From: Campylobacterota bacterium
Lineage (GTDB): Bacteria > Campylobacterota > Campylobacteria > Campylobacterales > Sulfurovaceae
Length of the DNA: 25,103 nucleotides
Assembly: GCA_034722955.1 (NCBI GenBank)
Contig: JAYEOM010000104.1
Location: forward strand, 1-25,103
Reading direction: 5' to 3'
In this document: in pieces, positions 1 to 5,113 of the stretch
How positions within the stretch are numbered: position 1 is the stretch's first letter
How the letters are laid out: each line of letters opens with the position of its first letter
The notes under the pieces: model-generated
Database searches by the model: none
What the model was told of the DNA's origin: nothing
The model's input: only the letters and a program-made list of their open reading frames with translations
Made by a program: the position numbers and the translations under genes

Positions 1-493
1 TATCATCTTTATGATTTTGTACTATCCGAGCATCTTTGAGACACTCTGGTATATTGTTTGTTAGAAAATGGTTATAAGAGCTATAGGGGTACTCTTCTAA
101 TGTTTTTACTATCTTTGCTTTGAGTGGATTTTGCTCTATATAGAGCATTAGAGTATAGAGATAAGCTTCATCTGTGACATACCAAGACTTGAACCGTCCT
201 TGCCACAGGTGTCCTGATCTTCTGTATTTTTTATTGAAGTAGATGGCGTAGTTCATATTGAGTTGTCTCATAAACTTAGAGAGGTTCTCTTTTTCTATCC
301 CTATGAGTAGATGATAGTGGTTTTTCATAAGACAATAGTTATGTATGGTGATACCATAGCTTTTTGCATAAAAGCACATTAGCTCTTCAAACTGTTCATA
401 GTCAGCAGGCTCTTTGAAGATAACTCTTTTGTCTACCCCTCTATTGATGATATGATAATAACCTGCTATCTCTATGCGTGGTTTTCTTGGCAT
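1..493 (-). CDS. REP-associated tyrosine transposase (RAYT, Y1/HUH family), runs off the window start
   Basis: Absent from the ORF track. Manual translation from ATG 493 gives MPRKPRIEIAGYYHIINRGVDKR...YCLMKNHYHLL...SGHLWQGRFKSW...LYIEQNPLKA...EEYPYSSY. It shows the HUH motif (HYH), catalytic Tyr (YIxxNP) and WQxRF motif, with RBS AAGGAG upstream. Open to position 1. Confidence 0.92.
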   Translation of the reverse strand, partial: MPRKPRIEIAGYYHIINRGVDKRVIFKEPADYEQFEELMCFYAKSYGITIHNYCLMKNHYHLLIGIEKENLSKFMRQLNMNYAIYFNKKYRRSGHLWQGRFKSWYVTDEAYLYTLMLYIEQNPLKAKIVKTLEEYPYSSYNHFLTNNIPECLKDARIVQNHKDD

Positions 494-546
494 CACTATC
501 TCCTTTGTTTGGTAGTATAGCTTATGAATACTTAGTTGTAGTTGTT

Positions 547-556
547 ACCTGACCCC
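547..556 (-). repeat. GGGGTCAGGT element-end motif upstream of the RAYT gene
   Basis: ACCTGACCCC at 547-556 is identical to 672-681 and lies about 55 bp upstream of the RAYT start codon. Confidence 0.75.
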
Positions 557-560
557 TTAA

Positions 561-677
561 CTACAAGCATACCAAAAAGGATATTCACAGCATTTGATTG
601 CTAAAGTATTAGGATTAAATCAAGCAACTGTACAGAGGATTATTAAGAGGACAAAGGATAGCATTAGCATCACCTGA
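561..677 (+). pseudogene. Startless C-terminal helix-turn-helix fragment of a RAYT transposase
   Basis: Translates LQAYQKGYSQHLIAKVLGLNQATVQRIIKRTKDSISIT*, a clear HTH (GYSQxxIAKVLGLNQATV) like the C-terminal HTH of this RAYT subgroup. Its stop TGA (675-677) lies inside ACCTGACCCC. No start codon; in-frame TAA at 558-560. Confidence 0.75.
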
Positions 678-818
678 CCCCGGGCTTATCTCTCCCTCAA
701 ATACTGAAAACTGCACACGCGTTAAATACTTCTCAACCTCTTTTCGTATCTTGTAGCTGTTATCTTTTTTAGCCCTTAAGCTTTTGTCGGCTATGTCGTA
801 AAATAGGATAATGTACAT
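615..818 (-). pseudogene. cas2: CRISPR-associated Cas2, 3'-truncated at about 682
   Basis: MYIILFYDI...KYLTRVQFSVFEGEISP carries the Cas2 YDI and Q.SVFEG motifs. After ISP the frame reads into GGGGTCAGG and unrelated sequence, leaving about 46 Cas2 residues of an expected ~90. Confidence 0.85.
672..681 (+). repeat. ACCTGACCCC element-end motif at the cas2 breakpoint
   Basis: Second exact copy of the 10-mer. It contains the HTH fragment stop codon and abuts the end of Cas2 similarity. Confidence 0.75.
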
Positions 819-822
819 ATCA

Positions 823-1353
823 TTACTTTTCTAGAATTTTATGTATGGTTCTCATAGAGAGATACATCATGGTTTGAGTAGGCTTCACCCCAAGTTCTCC
901 ATCTATCACAGGGACTATCTCAAAATCATACTTATGATAAAAAGCCACAGCATCATCTTTTGCATCAACAAAGATTCCAACACACCCAACCAACTCTTCT
1001 ATCTCTATGGCAAGATACAACATGTGTTGTAGTAGTTTTCGCCCTATACCTTGTGATTGAACGCTCTTATCTACTCCAAGCCGTGCAATCCTAAGAATAG
1101 GTAGTGGATAGTTAGGAAACTTTTTAAATTCAGATATATCCAAACTATCTATTTTCAAAGATGAAGCAGATATGGTTGCATATCCCAAAATCTTTTCTGA
1201 ACCACTCTCTATAGCTACATAAGAGTTCCCTATCTTGTGTTTAAACTGGTTCTGCCCTGCAAATTTGATAAAAAATCTATCTATCTCAATATCTCCACTA
1301 CAAAACTCTTTTCGGTTATCTCTCTTTTGGAGCTTTCTAATCTCTATCTTCAT
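823..1353 (-). CDS. GNAT-family acetyltransferase toxin (TacT/AtaT-like)
   Basis: FCSGDIEIDRFF N-terminus, RIARLGVDKSVQSQGIGRKLL acetyl-CoA motif and VDAKDDAVAFYHKYDF. Overlaps the upstream small gene. Confidence 0.88.
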   Translation of the reverse strand: MKIEIRKLQKRDNRKEFCSGDIEIDRFFIKFAGQNQFKHKIGNSYVAIESGSEKILGYATISASSLKIDSLDISEFKKFPNYPLPILRIARLGVDKSVQSQGIGRKLLQHMLYLAIEIEELVGCVGIFVDAKDDAVAFYHKYDFEIVPVIDGELGVKPTQTMMYLSMRTIHKILEK

Positions 1354-1597
1354 TCATCAGCTCTCTCAATGCACTGCTTGGTTCTCTATCTCTCATAATT
1401 ACATCTTCAAAAACCTCTTTCGAGACAGTAATATGTGGGGGGATAATAACATCCTCAGGCAACTCTTGATGAGCATTGATATAGTGAAGCAGTGCCTGTT
1501 CAATAATGAAACCTTTCTTCTGCCCAGATTTTGCTGAAAAGTTCTCAAATATCATCTTTGTCTCATTTGATATATAGGCTGATACTTGTGTTGTCAT
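1337..1597 (-). CDS. Antitoxin (RHH/DUF1778 TacA-like) of the GNAT toxin
   Basis: Start reassigned to ATG 1597 (MTTQVSAYIS) behind RBS AAAGGAG. 86 aa, with an RHH-like N-terminus and a C-terminal EPSSALRELM resembling DUF1778. Overlaps the GNAT gene. Confidence 0.72.
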   Translation of the reverse strand: MTTQVSAYISNETKMIFENFSAKSGQKKGFIIEQALLHYINAHQELPEDVIIPPHITVSKEVFEDVIMRDREPSSALRELMNEDRD

Positions 1598-1647
1598 GCT
1601 ATCTCCTTTGATTTCTACTATTTTGTAGATTTTTTTGTATTTTATCA

Positions 1648-1653
1648 ATTATA
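1648..1653 (-). promoter_or_regulatory. Possible -10 box (TATAAT) for the GNAT TA pair
   Basis: Perfect TATAAT on the minus strand about 50 bp upstream of the antitoxin start. Confidence 0.35.
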
Positions 1654-1664
1654 GCTAAAATGAT

Positions 1665-2130
1665 TTAATAACAATAATCCCTTACTCACAGCCCTTACAA
1701 AACTTTATCTCCACAAAAGGTGGTGGCTTAGGAGTGTCCAAAAATTGACTTAACTCAGACATAAGTGCTTCAATGGTTTGCATGTTCTCCTCATTCCCCT
1801 CTACAAATATGACTGTACGACCAGAAATAATCTTGCCATTAATCACTTTGAGTTTGAGAGAGGTTTTGAGTTGCCACATATAAAAGAGCAGTTGCATCTT
1901 TGCCCCTTGGGTATTGCTCATAGATTTTTTATACTCTGTGACCATAATATGCCCTCGCTCTTTGCCAATCTTGTCAAATTTGAGATGTGCAAAAGGAAAC
2001 TTATGCAAAGTATCCTCTTTTATCTCTGCCAATGCCTTACCCATCAAGATATTCTCATCCCACTGATCAGCATGAATACGCCTACTATAGAGCCATGCTT
2101 CTCTTGGGCAAGTGGCGTAGTAGTGTGTGA
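1665..2130 (-). pseudogene. cas4: CRISPR-associated exonuclease Cas4, 5'-truncated and frameshifted
   Basis: The frame extends upstream of the ORF call as HYYATCPREAWLY (first Fe-S Cys) with no start codon, and includes FDK, EYKKS and QLLFY motifs. At the end, TGT GAG TA AGG GAT TAT TGT TAT TAA is CEYRDYCY* with one base missing. Confidence 0.85.
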
Positions 2131-2280
2131 TATATGAAAGATTGTAATAGTTTGGCTAAGACCATTTTGACGGGTAGATTTCGTGTGGGCAAGGTTGCTT
2201 TTATGGTGAGCAATGTATGAACTCCAATTGTAAAATAACACTATGAGCTTATTATATATTTGTTCAACTAAAATTTTTTT

Positions 2281-2372
2281 ATTACGGGTCAGGCGTTGAA
2301 AATACACTTTTAAAATATGTTACATTTGTACTCAAATAATTAAAAGTAAATATTCAACGCCTGACCCGTAAT
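2281..2372. repeat. 92-bp inverted-repeat element (REPIN/MITE-like) with GGGTCAGG ends
   Basis: Perfect 20-bp IR: ATTACGGGTCAGGCGTTGAA (2281-2300) and TTCAACGCCTGACCCGTAAT (2353-2372). Inner IR: ACTTTTAA (2306-2313) and TTAAAAGT (2340-2347). Confidence 0.85.
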
Positions 2373-2389
2373 TGTAATTTATAATGAGA

Positions 2390-2527
2390 TTATTTCACCA
2401 ACTCCAAAAACTCCAACCCCTTATCATAATCTATTGAACTATCAGGCTCTCGAACTATTAAAGATTTTATAGTCTCTTTTTCTGTAATTGTTTTTCCAAT
2501 GTTGTATAGTTTACTTGCTAGGCTCAT
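2390..2527 (-). pseudogene. Probable N-terminal stub of type I-B Cas8b (TM1802/Csh1-like)
   Basis: MSLASKLYNIGKTITEKETIKSLI starts in ATGA overlap with the PIN gene and resembles Campylobacterota Cas8b N-termini as I recall them. It stops after 45 codons. Its position upstream of cas4 and cas2 fits. Confidence 0.45.
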
Positions 2528-2949
2528 CTTTTTCCTCCACCACATTTTTTTAAAAAACCATCCGTACCCATCACAGAAATACCACACTCAAAAAATCTTC
2601 TATCTTCTGTTATCAAAACACTACATTGATTCTCTTTAGCACAGAGACATTGTAATACATCTTCTAAATCTAAATTTTTTTCAAGAGCCAAAGCTATAGC
2701 TTTTTCTATGAGAGCTTTTCCATAAGGTACAACTTCCCATTTTTTAAGGATTTTTTGAAAAAACAGTAAAGTCGTTCTTTTATTTTTTATAATATAAAAA
2801 ATCGTACTCATCATATCTTCACTTATGACAATGGAATATGCGTTTAGAGTGAGATAGCTTATTAACTCTTGAACTTTTTGATGATTATCTCTCTTCTCAT
2901 CTAAAAAGTCTATAATAATATTTGTATCTAAAAAGATTTTTTTACTCAT
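2524..2949 (-). CDS. PIN-domain (VapC-like, PIN_3) toxin
   Basis: IFLDTNIIIDFL, DLEDVLQCLCA and LITEDRRF acidic PIN motifs. Confidence 0.9.
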   Translation of the reverse strand: MSKKIFLDTNIIIDFLDEKRDNHQKVQELISYLTLNAYSIVISEDMMSTIFYIIKNKRTTLLFFQKILKKWEVVPYGKALIEKAIALALEKNLDLEDVLQCLCAKENQCSVLITEDRRFFECGISVMGTDGFLKKCGGGKR

Positions 2950-3229
2950 AGTTATATCTATCTGCTTTTTTTTCTTTTATCTCTTGTACCGTCATATTCT
3001 CGGTATCTCCACTTGCAATACCTGCAAACTGCATAATCTCATCAAGCTCTTTTTGTCTCTCTAATTGTAATTTATTTTCTAAAAAAGCTTTAATTTCATC
3101 TGCATATTGGGCTGAGATGAGTAGCCCCTTATACTCTTTGGTTTTCTTATCTTCAATATCTATATAATCATACTCTTGCAATATATTTATATTTCGTGCT
3201 ATCTCTCGCACACCTATGGTAGCTGTCAT
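2942..3229 (-). CDS. Putative antitoxin of the PIN toxin (Phd/YefM-like N-terminus)
   Basis: MTATIGVREIARNI resembles Phd-type starts. 95 aa, overlaps the PIN gene, RBS AAGGA. Confidence 0.7.
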   Translation of the reverse strand: MTATIGVREIARNINILQEYDYIDIEDKKTKEYKGLLISAQYADEIKAFLENKLQLERQKELDEIMQFAGIASGDTENMTVQEIKEKKADRYNYE

Positions 3230-3368
3230 TTTAAATCCTTGTTGTCTTTTATATATTTATAGTATATCTAATTTATATTGAAAATAACTATACCACCTCC
3301 ACAACTAAAATTTTTATGAAAGCATTAGATCTGCAGGCTTGTACAATAGTACTCTTTTAAGGATCTTG

Positions 3369-3377
3369 TGCTATGAT
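3369..3377 (+). promoter_or_regulatory. Extended -10 promoter (TGcTATGAT) for ffs
   Basis: TGnTATGAT upstream of a hairpin and the SRP RNA. Confidence 0.55.
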
Positions 3378-3427
3378 ATCACTCTTCAAAAGAGGCAGTG
3401 AGAACATTTGGGTGTTTTGACTGCCTC

Positions 3428-3523
3428 TTTCTAGACCTGTGCAATAGCATTTGAGGGTACTGGGTCAGGATGGGAACATAGCAGCCCGTCTTCATCTACT
3501 ATGTGCCGCAGGGATCTGGGGGG
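3428..3523 (+). ncRNA. ffs: Signal recognition particle RNA (4.5S, small bacterial SRP)
   Basis: Helix-8 motif GGGTCAGG-ATG-GGAA-CAT-AGCAGCCC at 3462-3487. The 5' end CTAGACCTGTGC pairs with the 3' end GCAGGGATCTGG. Ends are approximate. Confidence 0.88.
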
Positions 3524-3549
3524 AGGTTACTATGCGTTGTACCTCTTTT
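3523..3549 (+). terminator. Probable intrinsic terminator of ffs
   Basis: GAGGT(T)AC...GTACCTC stem followed by TTTT. Confidence 0.55.
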
Positions 3550-4651
3550 ACAAATCTATATTATCTTGAAAATCATCCTCATCTTCATTTAGAATACTCC
3601 ACTCATAAAATGGAAGAGCTTCAAATCGTATCTTCTCTATCTCATAACTGTATTGATTGGCTACTGTGATTATAGTCACCTTCTCTACGCCATGTTTTTT
3701 GTAAAGAGAAAATTTGTTATGTGACTTTTTCCAGATACTCTCTTCACTCTCAAATGGAGCAGGAGTGATGAGCTCTCCGTATAAAGTAAGGTAGCCATGT
3801 ATCCCCAAAGTTTTGAAGGCTCTATGGTGTTTTATAAGGGCTAGTGCGATTATGCTATCAAACTGCGTGATAAAAGGCTGTCCCATCGTGAGATATTTGC
3901 CAAGGGCAAAATCAAATATGATAAGCTTTTTGCCGCCTTTTTGATGGATATCTTCAATAAAATAGAGTATACCCTCCTGCTGAAAATCCTTGATCTTTCG
4001 ATAGAGCCAATCTTTGGAGACTTTGAACCTCTCTTTTGCAGCTCTATAGATCTGATGAGTTGTGAGGTGTTTAGTCTGGTATATTGCCAGAAGAGCAAGA
4101 AGTTGCTGCTCTTGCCTCTCAAACCTACTCTGTAGAAAAGTTTTTAACTCTATGGTGGCGGTTTGTGTAGATCGTGATGTCACCGGCAGTGTACCTAGCT
4201 TGAGAAAGTGGTTGAAACTGTTAGCAGCTGATGTGCTTCGTTCAAAAGCTAGGAACTCTTCGTAGTCTAGAGGAAATAGTTCAACTTCCGCAAAACCTGC
4301 TAGAGATAGAGGAGTTCTTGATAAGATGATAATCCTCTCTGCATGCGGAATCTCCTCTAGTATAGATGGCTCATAGTGGTCAAGCACCAAAAGTTCGATG
4401 CTGCTCTCCCATATATAGCTCTGCAGCTCATCTCTATCTATGGAGCCAAAGAGTAGGTTGGGGTCATCACCATCTATATAGAGCAGTGTCTCATGATCCA
4501 TCTCCTCTAGATAATCTACCACCAACATACTCTTGCCAGCACCCCTGACTCCATGAAGATTGATATGGTTCTCATCGGGGAGTTGGAGCTTTCTGGGTGT
4601 ATAGTGAGTTATCTCCGGAGGGTGACTCTGGAAGTAATCGAAGAGTTTCAT
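3548..4651 (-). CDS. AAA+ (AAA_14-like) ATP-binding protein
   Basis: Walker A GVRGAGKS and FPLDYEEF motif. A similar gene flanks rpsJ in Helicobacter. Confidence 0.8.
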   Translation of the reverse strand: MKLFDYFQSHPPEITHYTPRKLQLPDENHINLHGVRGAGKSMLVVDYLEEMDHETLLYIDGDDPNLLFGSIDRDELQSYIWESSIELLVLDHYEPSILEEIPHAERIIILSRTPLSLAGFAEVELFPLDYEEFLAFERSTSAANSFNHFLKLGTLPVTSRSTQTATIELKTFLQSRFERQEQQLLALLAIYQTKHLTTHQIYRAAKERFKVSKDWLYRKIKDFQQEGILYFIEDIHQKGGKKLIIFDFALGKYLTMGQPFITQFDSIIALALIKHHRAFKTLGIHGYLTLYGELITPAPFESEESIWKKSHNKFSLYKKHGVEKVTIITVANQYSYEIEKIRFEALPFYEWSILNEDEDDFQDNIDL

Positions 4652-4801
4652 ATCTTATCCTTCCTTATAAAAAGGAAATAAATTTTCTTATTGTAGCGAT
4701 TTTGGACTAAATTCTAGGCTAACGAAAAGAGAAACTCGGTACAATACGCGTCCAACAAATTTATGTTAGGTGAAACTAACGAGTTCTTTATAAGGGTAAA
4801 A

Positions 4802-5113
4802 ATGGAAAAGATTAGATTGAAGCTTAAGGCTTATGATCATCGTGTATTGGATAGATCAGTTGCTGCTATTGTCGATGCAGTCAAGAGAACAGGTGCTGAA
4901 ATTATAGGACCTATCCCTATGCCGACAAAGATAAAGCGTTATACAGTGCTTAAGTCTCCGCATGTAAACAAAGATGCCAGAGAGCAGTTTGAGATTAGAA
5001 TACACTCAAGAATGATTGATATCGTTTCTGCTACTTCGGATACTATAGATTCACTGATGAAGTTGGATTTAGCACCGGAGATCGAAGTAGAAATAAGATC
5101 GATGGACAAGTAA
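4802..5113 (+). CDS. rpsJ: 30S ribosomal protein S10
   Basis: [17 protein letters not shown]; start reassigned to ATG 4802. Confidence 0.98.

Follow-up and report, generated by a model that had tools for sequence, protein, structure and literature searches.

How did the front part of a transposase gene and a startless helix-turn-helix (HTH) tail, facing in opposite orientations, come to lie side by side next to a broken cas2 gene? The question is raised by the stretch of DNA analyzed here (the window), which comprises the first 25,103 bases of contig C104 (G000:C104:1-25103) in the genome of a Campylobacterota bacterium, G000 (2.51 Mb, 140 contigs, 40% G+C). The gene resembles those of RAYTs, the tyrosine transposases associated with repetitive extragenic palindromes (REPs), and the original prediction, made from the letters of this stretch, offered two origins for the layout: an inversion within one element or a nested insertion of two copies. 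We conclude that positions 1-681 are in all probability parts of two distinct, abutting copies of a TIRtron, a RAYT-like gene set within long terminal inverted repeats (TIRs), with copy A being the left end of the minus-strand gene, copy B the last 120 bp of a second element, and the joint between them apparently made by a transposase. The locus is one instance of an unusual TIRtron burst in G000. Throughout, C-numbers denote contigs of G000, G004, G006, and G008 are genomes of relatives, and L- and P-numbers denote homologous loci and homologous proteins.

Copies A and B and the intact unit

The 10-mer ACCTGACCCC occurs twice on the plus strand, at 547-556 and 672-681, a layout that two units in opposite orientation give, and it bounds the minus-strand gene and the plus-strand tail as had been predicted. 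Read on the minus strand, the first occurrence is GGGGTCAGGT; it does lie upstream of the transposase gene, though 53 nt rather than the stated 55 bp separate it from the ATG. Within the window alone this pair is unremarkable (2 matches with at most one mismatch vs 0.52 expected; 2 or more turn up in 8 of 100 shuffles). Across G000, a first-order Markov model predicts 1.56 occurrences of the 10-mer, and 57 are present, on 35 of the 140 contigs.

Copy A matches Pfam Y1_Tnp over 2-496 of the minus strand (E 2.1e-18). Its start codon is the ATG at 493..491, the GTG at 496 being merely a mechanical open reading frame (ORF) start, and it is the contig start, not a mutation or break, that cuts the gene short at base 2. 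The most similar proteins are found in records of Sulfurovum and other Campylobacterales. The 22-27 nt of the left end recur at C62, C24, and C8 and in 50-bp dimers, always with the tip TTAAT or TTAAC, which follows every subtype-A left end seen (window, C62, C24, C8); a matching ATTAA stands at one flank of four of the five complete dimers (C3, C20, C132, C134), and the tip is absent from the empty site in a short-chain dehydrogenase/reductase (SDR) gene of the relative G004. At C62 the left end of copy A is repeated at 98.4% identity over 127 nt with a different flank.

On the other side of the joint, the frame 561-677 translates to LQAYQKGYSQHLIAKVLGLNQATVQRIIKRTKDSISIT, with no start codon and with its TGA stop (675-677) inside the second motif, again as predicted. 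This 38-residue tail scores 24.5 bits against Pfam HTH_23 (E 2.2e-5), just below the cut-off of 24.6, and 23.5 bits against HTH_28; compared with RAYT C-termini, a check that had been suggested for it, it aligns with full-length homologues (P0005 ends in ...GYSQHMIAKVLELNQATVQRIIKRTK). The right TIR of copy B, 659-681, reads TAGCATTAGCATC followed by ACCTGACCCC. The counterparts of copy B on C120 and C92 continue upstream with ...AAATAG where the window reads TTAAC, and a loose end at 562 in the public sequencing run X4, AAGAGAAATATAAAAATAG, shows copy B's native upstream sequence. At the A/B joint the complete left tip of A is kept and B is severed within its HTH codons; such a joining of an intact element end to the interior of another copy looks like the product of a transposase.

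Table 1. Coordinates of the features at the left edge of the window.
Positions	Strand	Feature	Details
2..493	-	TIRYT gene, 5' two-thirds (residues 1-164 of ~255), copy A; Y1/HUH catalytic domain with HYH and YIEQNP	Pfam Y1_Tnp
494..534	-	5' untranslated leader, left TIR to ATG	read from sequence; 98% identical at a second locus, C62:1-127
535..561	-	left end, subtype A	inner tandem hexamers 535-546 (GTTGTAGTTGTT on the plus strand), core ACCTGACCCC 547-556, outer tip TTAAC 557-561
562..681	+	3'-terminal remnant of second element, subtype B (copy B)	last 38 codons (HTH) and right TIR; 97% identical to C120:96-215 and C92:11-130
682..818	-	cas2 5' half (~46 of ~92 codons), disrupted by the subtype-B right end at 681/682	Pfam CRISPR_Cas2 positions 1-41 of 74, E 3.3e-12
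2281..2372		inverted TIR pair, third subtype C (ATTAC-GGGTCAGGCGTTGAA...), internally deleted, non-coding	92 bp; arms 33 nt, 91% complementary; fold -30.2 kcal/mol, z -9.9

The intact unit can be read from homologues, 1767 of 1771 candidates being homologous at E<=0.001 and most of the best 120 measuring 254-256 residues. A scan of one genome per species yielded 521 confirmed loci; 80 were kept, and 71 of them have at least 100 nt of sequence upstream and at least 45 nt downstream. The exact 8-mer GGGTCAGG stands 54-130 nt before the start codon at 61 of these 71 loci and CCTGACCC at the gene end at 39, with both present at 38 and near-matches to the core at most of the remaining loci. The predicted unit, GGGGTCAGGT-transposase-HTH-ACCTGACCCC, is thus found with matching TIRs flanking the genes across Campylobacterota, which also settles the suggested check on whether RAYT homologues carry the motif. 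Each TIR, 20-30 bp long (about 22-28 bp), is made up of an A/T-rich tip, the conserved core (A)GGGGTCAGGT, and two variable hexamers (for example GATAAT-GATAAC, GATGCT-AATGCT, or AACAAC-TACAAC). Of 56 intact homologues, 14 have as their stop codon, which had been proposed to be embedded in the right end, the TGA of the right core; in 22 the core begins 6-29 nt past the stop, and in 20 no core was found by pattern. The homologues' tails are of two types, ...ITQQAVFAVIKRSRR (P0001, P0002) and ...LNQATVQRIIKRTK (P0005), and the window's peptide belongs to the second. G000 itself holds a full unit at C130:7152-8018, a pseudogene with in-frame stop codons, and a more distant one on C67 with an intact gene of 258 codons.

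The catalytic motifs HYH and YIEQNP are invariant across the homologue alignment (H59, Y60, H61, Y118, N122, P123), and PF13384 or PF13518 is precomputed on several full-length homologues. An AlphaFold2 model of the close homologue P0001 (pLDDT 83) has helices at 215-227, 232-239, and 243-254; Foldseek placed it nearest to 4er8, the Escherichia coli TnpA-REP (E 1.7e-6, TM 0.73 on the target), with IS608 and ISDra2 transposases at ranks 2-26. A profile search of PDB sequences likewise reached 4er8 (E 0.0093), and a single-sequence phmmer search against PDB gave no match.

Origin of the joint

An inversion that tied an element's left end to a point within its gene, and so silenced the transposase, would leave a left end opposed to a startless tail on the other strand, as seen here; the second left end that stands beside an inverted short tail at C117 and at the right end of C104 would fit it as well. 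Four observations nevertheless make this origin very improbable. First, the two ends differ in TIR subtype: of 38 complete homologous elements, 37 have left and right TIRs whose inner 14 nt match at 10 positions or more (at all 14 in 14 of them), whereas 3 of the 14 match between the left end in the window (TAACAACTACAACT) and the right end of the tail (TGATGCTAATGCTA); in a cross-locus control, 53% of pairs agree at 6 or fewer. Second, the tail's recognition helix fits its own TIR class, since the copy B helix LNQATVQRIIKR pairs with TIR class GATGCTAATGCT (GATGCT type) in L027, L037, and L038; subtype-A right ends elsewhere in G000 follow a ...VFAAIKRSRR* tail (C69, C126, C138). Third, the minus-strand gene appears to keep an HTH of its own, the point on which the original prediction had proposed to decide between its two origins. 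Public contigs aligned to window 1-1500 come from four runs (X1-X4) of one study, possibly the window's source sample; letters 346-472 of X3 record 17 (472 nt) are identical to window 1-127 and the record extends 345 letters leftward, and in runs X3, X1, and X4 joints lead from position 1 to 564/576 on the opposite strand, which is the HTH-coding stretch on the gene's own strand. Fourth, of the 66 upstream flanks taken from homologues of other genomes, none carries an inverted tail. Within G000, no contig overlaps base 1 exactly, and no subtype-A right end was found that is followed by the reverse complement of copy B's interior. Past the contig start, copy A most likely continues through an HTH and a right end of its own.

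We also consider it improbable that the A/B joint at 556-562 is an artefact of assembly or binning that brought together repeat copies from different places or strains. The setting invites the suspicion: the first 681 bases are all repeat, with a depth over 1-700 that in the four runs exceeds the depth of the unique 701-1500 by factors of tens to ~170 (in X1, a summed contig depth of 388-4916 over 1-700 vs 28.6 over most of 701-1500, a community-wide depth that gives no copy number), the contig ends in repeat, and 35 of the 57 copies of the 10-mer lie within 300 nt of a contig end. The assembly of G000 is indeed fragmented by this TIR repeat family, and no contig among those listed for the four runs bridges 556-562. 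However, only the 10-nt core is common across the joint, which is shorter than usual assembly word sizes and should make a false join unlikely; the neighboring B/cas2 joint is carried by X2 record 16 (652-1500, zero differences) and by X1 record 8; and the loose ends at 558 and 562 are other copies that diverge exactly at element boundaries, as for real ends. Exact-pattern scans of public metagenome contigs gave 0 matches for the A/B joint and 0 for the B/cas2 joint.

Several further points, together with the lack of a contig bridging 556-562, weigh against two abutting copies. The assembly lacks the left side of copy A, and the HTH-bearing contigs are collapsed repeats (depth 24 in X3 vs 6.4 for unique sequence) from a single study that may be the window's own source; they therefore show the behavior of near-identical copies, not of copy A for certain. 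Subtypes are mosaic, as in P0005, which is 87% identical in the Y1 part and has a B-type tail, so that protein similarity alone cannot assign ends. In a further mosaic, C113:132-380, the left TIR and leader are of subtype B and the coding sequence joined to them shares 97.7% identity with window 366-493 of the subtype-A copy, which suggests recombination between subtypes within the genome. The right end of copy B meets cas2 without the T-rich tip of other B ends (GGGCT vs TTTAG, TCTAG, and TAAGG), and that joint may therefore be secondary. Finally, the 3' half of cas2 was found nowhere in G000 in searches with paralogues and the G006 orthologue, and for the flanking cas1 and cas3 of G008 no orthologues were found in G000, only paralogues of 24-29% identity. 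The missing parts hint that deletion fits better than plain nested insertion, although a metagenome bin may lose short repeat-flanked contigs, so that they are no proof of deletion.

Two copies remain our favored account, while the nesting that the original prediction envisaged shares its ground with an intramolecular deletion: A may have inserted into B, or an intramolecular event may have joined the left end of A to a neighboring B copy and taken out DNA in the process.

Kinship with TIRtrons and proposed recognition of the ends

Although the original prediction took the end architecture to be unlike known ones, it is already published. Di Nocera 2013 (BMC Genomics 14:522, PMC3733652), in the portion drawn on here, describes RAYT-like genes with long TIRs as "TIRtrons" and their proteins as "TIRYTs," with a common TIR motif GGGGWSAS, TIRs that overlap the gene ends, and TIR copies that occur singly, as dimers, and in groups; the TIR families are called moderately abundant and TIRYTs possibly "less productive players." Quentin 2018 (BMC Genomics 19:475, PMC6006769), likewise in the portion drawn on, places 20 of 26 TIRYTs in TnpA-REP subclass 2.1, with a C-terminal domain like HTH_23, HTH_28, or DnaA_C, reports low copy number and no evidence of mobility for class 2 genes, and leaves open whether the HTH reads the TIR.

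The element in G000 agrees with these descriptions in its RAYT-like HUH/Y1 gene (Y1_Tnp, invariant HYH and YIEQNP, 4er8 fold), in the long TIRs that replace REP hairpins in the homologues and on C130 and C67 (the window copy shows the left end only), and in the GGGGWSAS motif, GGGGTCAG being present at both window ends and in most homologous loci. Like the TIRtrons as described, it has a TIR that overlaps the 3' end of the gene and TIRs that occur as singles, dimers, and groups; unlike them, the unit in G000 is present in many copies and fragments with at least three TIR subtypes (A, B, and C) plus further variants, and it interrupts genes. With subclass 2.1 (2.1.2), equated with TIRYTs in Quentin 2018 (PMC6006769), it shares Y---NP (here YIEQNP), HuH, a long protein with a C-terminal HTH (HTH_23/HTH_28), and the absence of REP hairpins nearby, a likeness of motifs and domains rather than a placement in a tree. 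It differs from that subclass, as the same text presents it, in the high copy number in G000 and in a recognition helix that co-varies with the inner TIR.

Two better-known groups lie further away. RAYT-REPIN systems or REPtrons (E. coli TnpA-REP, 4er8; Bertels 2017), insofar as the sources used describe them, provide the nearest solved fold, a gene between inverted repeat units, and non-coding doublets that fold into hairpins as REPINs do, but they have GTAG-tagged palindromes and a usually single-copy gene, whereas here there is no such palindrome, a single end forms no hairpin, 34 fragment matches are present, and the protein carries an extra HTH. IS200/IS605 elements (IS608, ISDra2 TnpA) share the HUH/Y1 fold and probably a single-strand chemistry without target duplication, but they have subterminal hairpins, no TIRs, and a transposase of ~130-150 residues without an HTH. 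Because the single window ends fail to fold (-3.8 and -2.5 kcal/mol, z -1.8 and -0.06) and the copy A protein reaches 25.4 bits against the NCBIfam model transpos_IS200 (cut-off 55), the element is neither a REPtron nor a member of IS200/IS605; against REP_Tyr_transpos the protein scores 73.8 bits, below the cut-off of 80. By eye only, no direct repeats were seen flanking complete elements. Among the literature searched, the names TIRYT and TIRtron appear only in Di Nocera 2013 and Quentin 2018, and that literature yielded nothing on helix-TIR matching or TIRYT mobility and, among the papers listed for Campylobacterota names, no mention of RAYT.

The recognition helix co-varies with the variable inner TIR. 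We compared distances of the left-end inner TIR, the HTH region, and the Y1 domain among 55 distinct intact homologues by Mantel correlation. The distance of the left inner TIR correlates with that of the HTH (r 0.71) and that of the Y1 domain (r 0.61); in partial Mantel tests, r(TIR,HTH|Y1) is 0.46 (permutation p 0.0005), vs 0.11 for r(TIR,Y1|HTH). Among pairs with a Y1 distance of at most 0.25, the recognition helix differs at 6.9 of 12 residues where left TIRs are unlike (at least 5 of 12 bases different; 171 pairs) and at 2.0 of 12 where they are alike (at most 2 of 12 bases; 84 pairs), whereas the preceding helices 1-2 differ equally in both groups (5.8 and 5.1 of 20). Linkage does not explain the pattern, because the left TIR adjoins the Y1 codons and lies ~770 bp from the helix codons. 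It counts against a firm conclusion that the pairs are not independent, and the helix-TIR link is offered as a hypothesis with good support from the compared sequences.

The data show the anatomy of the unit, its family membership, the subtype mismatch, the excess of copies, the broken genes, and this co-variation. In the mechanism that we propose for the family, we infer the cleavage chemistry, the strand that moves, and the present activity of the elements. The core GGGGTCAGG would be handled on single-stranded DNA by the catalytic Y1 domain, and the variable inner hexamer pair would be read by the HTH recognition helix, so that several subtypes could coexist; close-lying ends, as in TIR dimers, would pair into a hairpin.

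The family across the genome and the cas remnant

G000 holds 34 gene-fragment matches to P0001; of 40 relatives, 26 have one or more, and the numbers there range from 0 to 7. Five 50-bp subtype-A dimers, palindromic and near-identical apart from a few changed bases in the C30 copy, lie at different loci, as do four or five subtype-B dimers of 73 bp. The site at 2281-2372, rightly called related in the original prediction, proves to be a TIR pair of a third subtype, whose core, CGCCTGACCCG, has 18 copies in G000; in longer copies (215-280 bp) the leader, start codons, and HTH are preserved. An Rfam search of window 1-3000 returned only two sub-threshold plant or animal microRNA models, both on the 2281-2372 hairpin. 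Matches in plasmid records numbered 35, all below 60% identity. In a check for target mimicry, 7 of 61 left ends and 3 of 38 right ends had a partial core no more than 14 nt beyond them, and these partial cores may be remnants of older ends.

Is this family instead a domesticated RAYT-like system whose fragments are old debris, spread by recombination and not by transposition? The low copy number and lack of evidence of mobility reported for class 2 in the portion of Quentin 2018 (PMC6006769) drawn on here would suit such a history, as would the 0-7 matches in relatives and the state of the copies in G000, where C67 has the only open full-length frame assembled and many fragments carry stops. 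Yet near-identical end segments lie at different loci with different flanks (C62 and the 50-bp and 73-bp dimers), genes are broken exactly at element ends with empty sites in relatives (cas2 in G006, the SDR gene in G004), contigs at least 99% alike are abundant in the four runs, and the match of left TIR to right TIR, and of both to the helix, has been kept, a sign of selection on the function of the whole unit. Domestication is therefore unlikely in our judgment. That the TIRtrons of this clade are autonomous, recently active single-strand transposons, not domesticated, with a two-part recognition of their ends (core GGGGTCAGG by Y1, hexamer pair by the HTH helix), is a tentative proposal on which we stop somewhat short of even confidence. 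If it is true, several mutually blind subtypes, each accompanied by non-coding derivatives that form hairpins, could multiply together in one genome and wear down loci like this cas operon.

Little of the biology of the widespread class 2 Y1 transposases (RAYTs and TIRYTs) has been put to the test, the main survey leaving the role of the HTH open. G000 offers a natural case of a TIRYT unit acting like an insertion sequence: its copies are many, its ends match, and genes that it breaks have empty counterparts in relatives. With it comes a simple candidate rule that relates the HTH recognition helix to the inner TIR. For annotation, the family explains both the assembly breaks at TIR sites (35 of 57 cores at contig ends) and the cas2 remnant.

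That remnant belongs to a cas adaptation/interference operon, of which window 682-2135 retains the first half of cas2, a GNAT/RHH pair, and a degraded cas4 that lacks ~12 N-terminal and 6 C-terminal codons. G006 has an intact Cas2 orthologue of 92 residues, and its homology to the window begins at 682. In G008 the gene order is cas3-cas4-cas2-cas1, with cas4 and cas2 adjacent; in the window, a GNAT acetyltransferase and a small upstream ORF, resembling a toxin-antitoxin pair (823-1648), stand between cas2 and cas4, as they do in G006. The 2281-2372 pair lies ~150 nt past the end of the cas4 homology. The missing cas sequences and the B end that lacks its T-rich tip hint that deletions as well as insertions shaped the cas locus. 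The original prediction had further suggested that motif-directed cutting and joining reshuffles this island; family members do stand at or near the edges of the decayed cas remnant (681/682 and 2281-2372), while no such event was observed.

Elsewhere in G000, at C134:27000-27850 (L105), an SDR gene is cut after ...FLTKAVM by a 50-bp subtype-A TIR dimer, followed by a 31-nt internal transposase fragment, and is uninterrupted in G004; for the dimer on C41, relatives matched the right flank only when an empty site was sought. The layout at C117:1380-1727 and at C104:33000-33380, outside the window, is the same as at window 535-681, with a subtype-B left end 18 nt from the truncated start of an inverted tail (VFGVIKRSRE*) and a degenerate right end. 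Subtype-C elements of 215-280 bp (C13:23725-23960, C31, C95, C57, C40, C96, C113, and C104:31560-31810) join the leader, MPRG..., and the HTH in frame in an ORF of ~50 codons whose predicted product is just the HTH and which was translated for C13 alone, the other copies being alike at the DNA level; a free HTH from this ORF could compete for TIRs and damp transposition.

Tips vary from subtype to subtype and, within subtype A, from left end to right. Often, just outside an element end, the last 2-7 core bases and the 5-7 nt tip are re-duplicated in tandem, as in CCCC-TTTCTA-CCC-TTTCTA-CTTGACCCC-TTTCTA; such stutters, with the arrays of end segments counted among them, occur at C126:1494-, C69:1767-, C22:22500-22600, C25:200-270, and C80:7015-7290 and at L019, L026, L029, L066, and L068. 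End segments of 41-56 bp also form tandem arrays (C22, C25, C80), the 56-bp array of C80 having at least four units around a run of N. In the window, 2416-2425 reads ACCCCTTATC, the last core bases plus tip as at C104:33366-33380 and on C117, and this likeness of 8-10 nt may be a worn end stub or chance.

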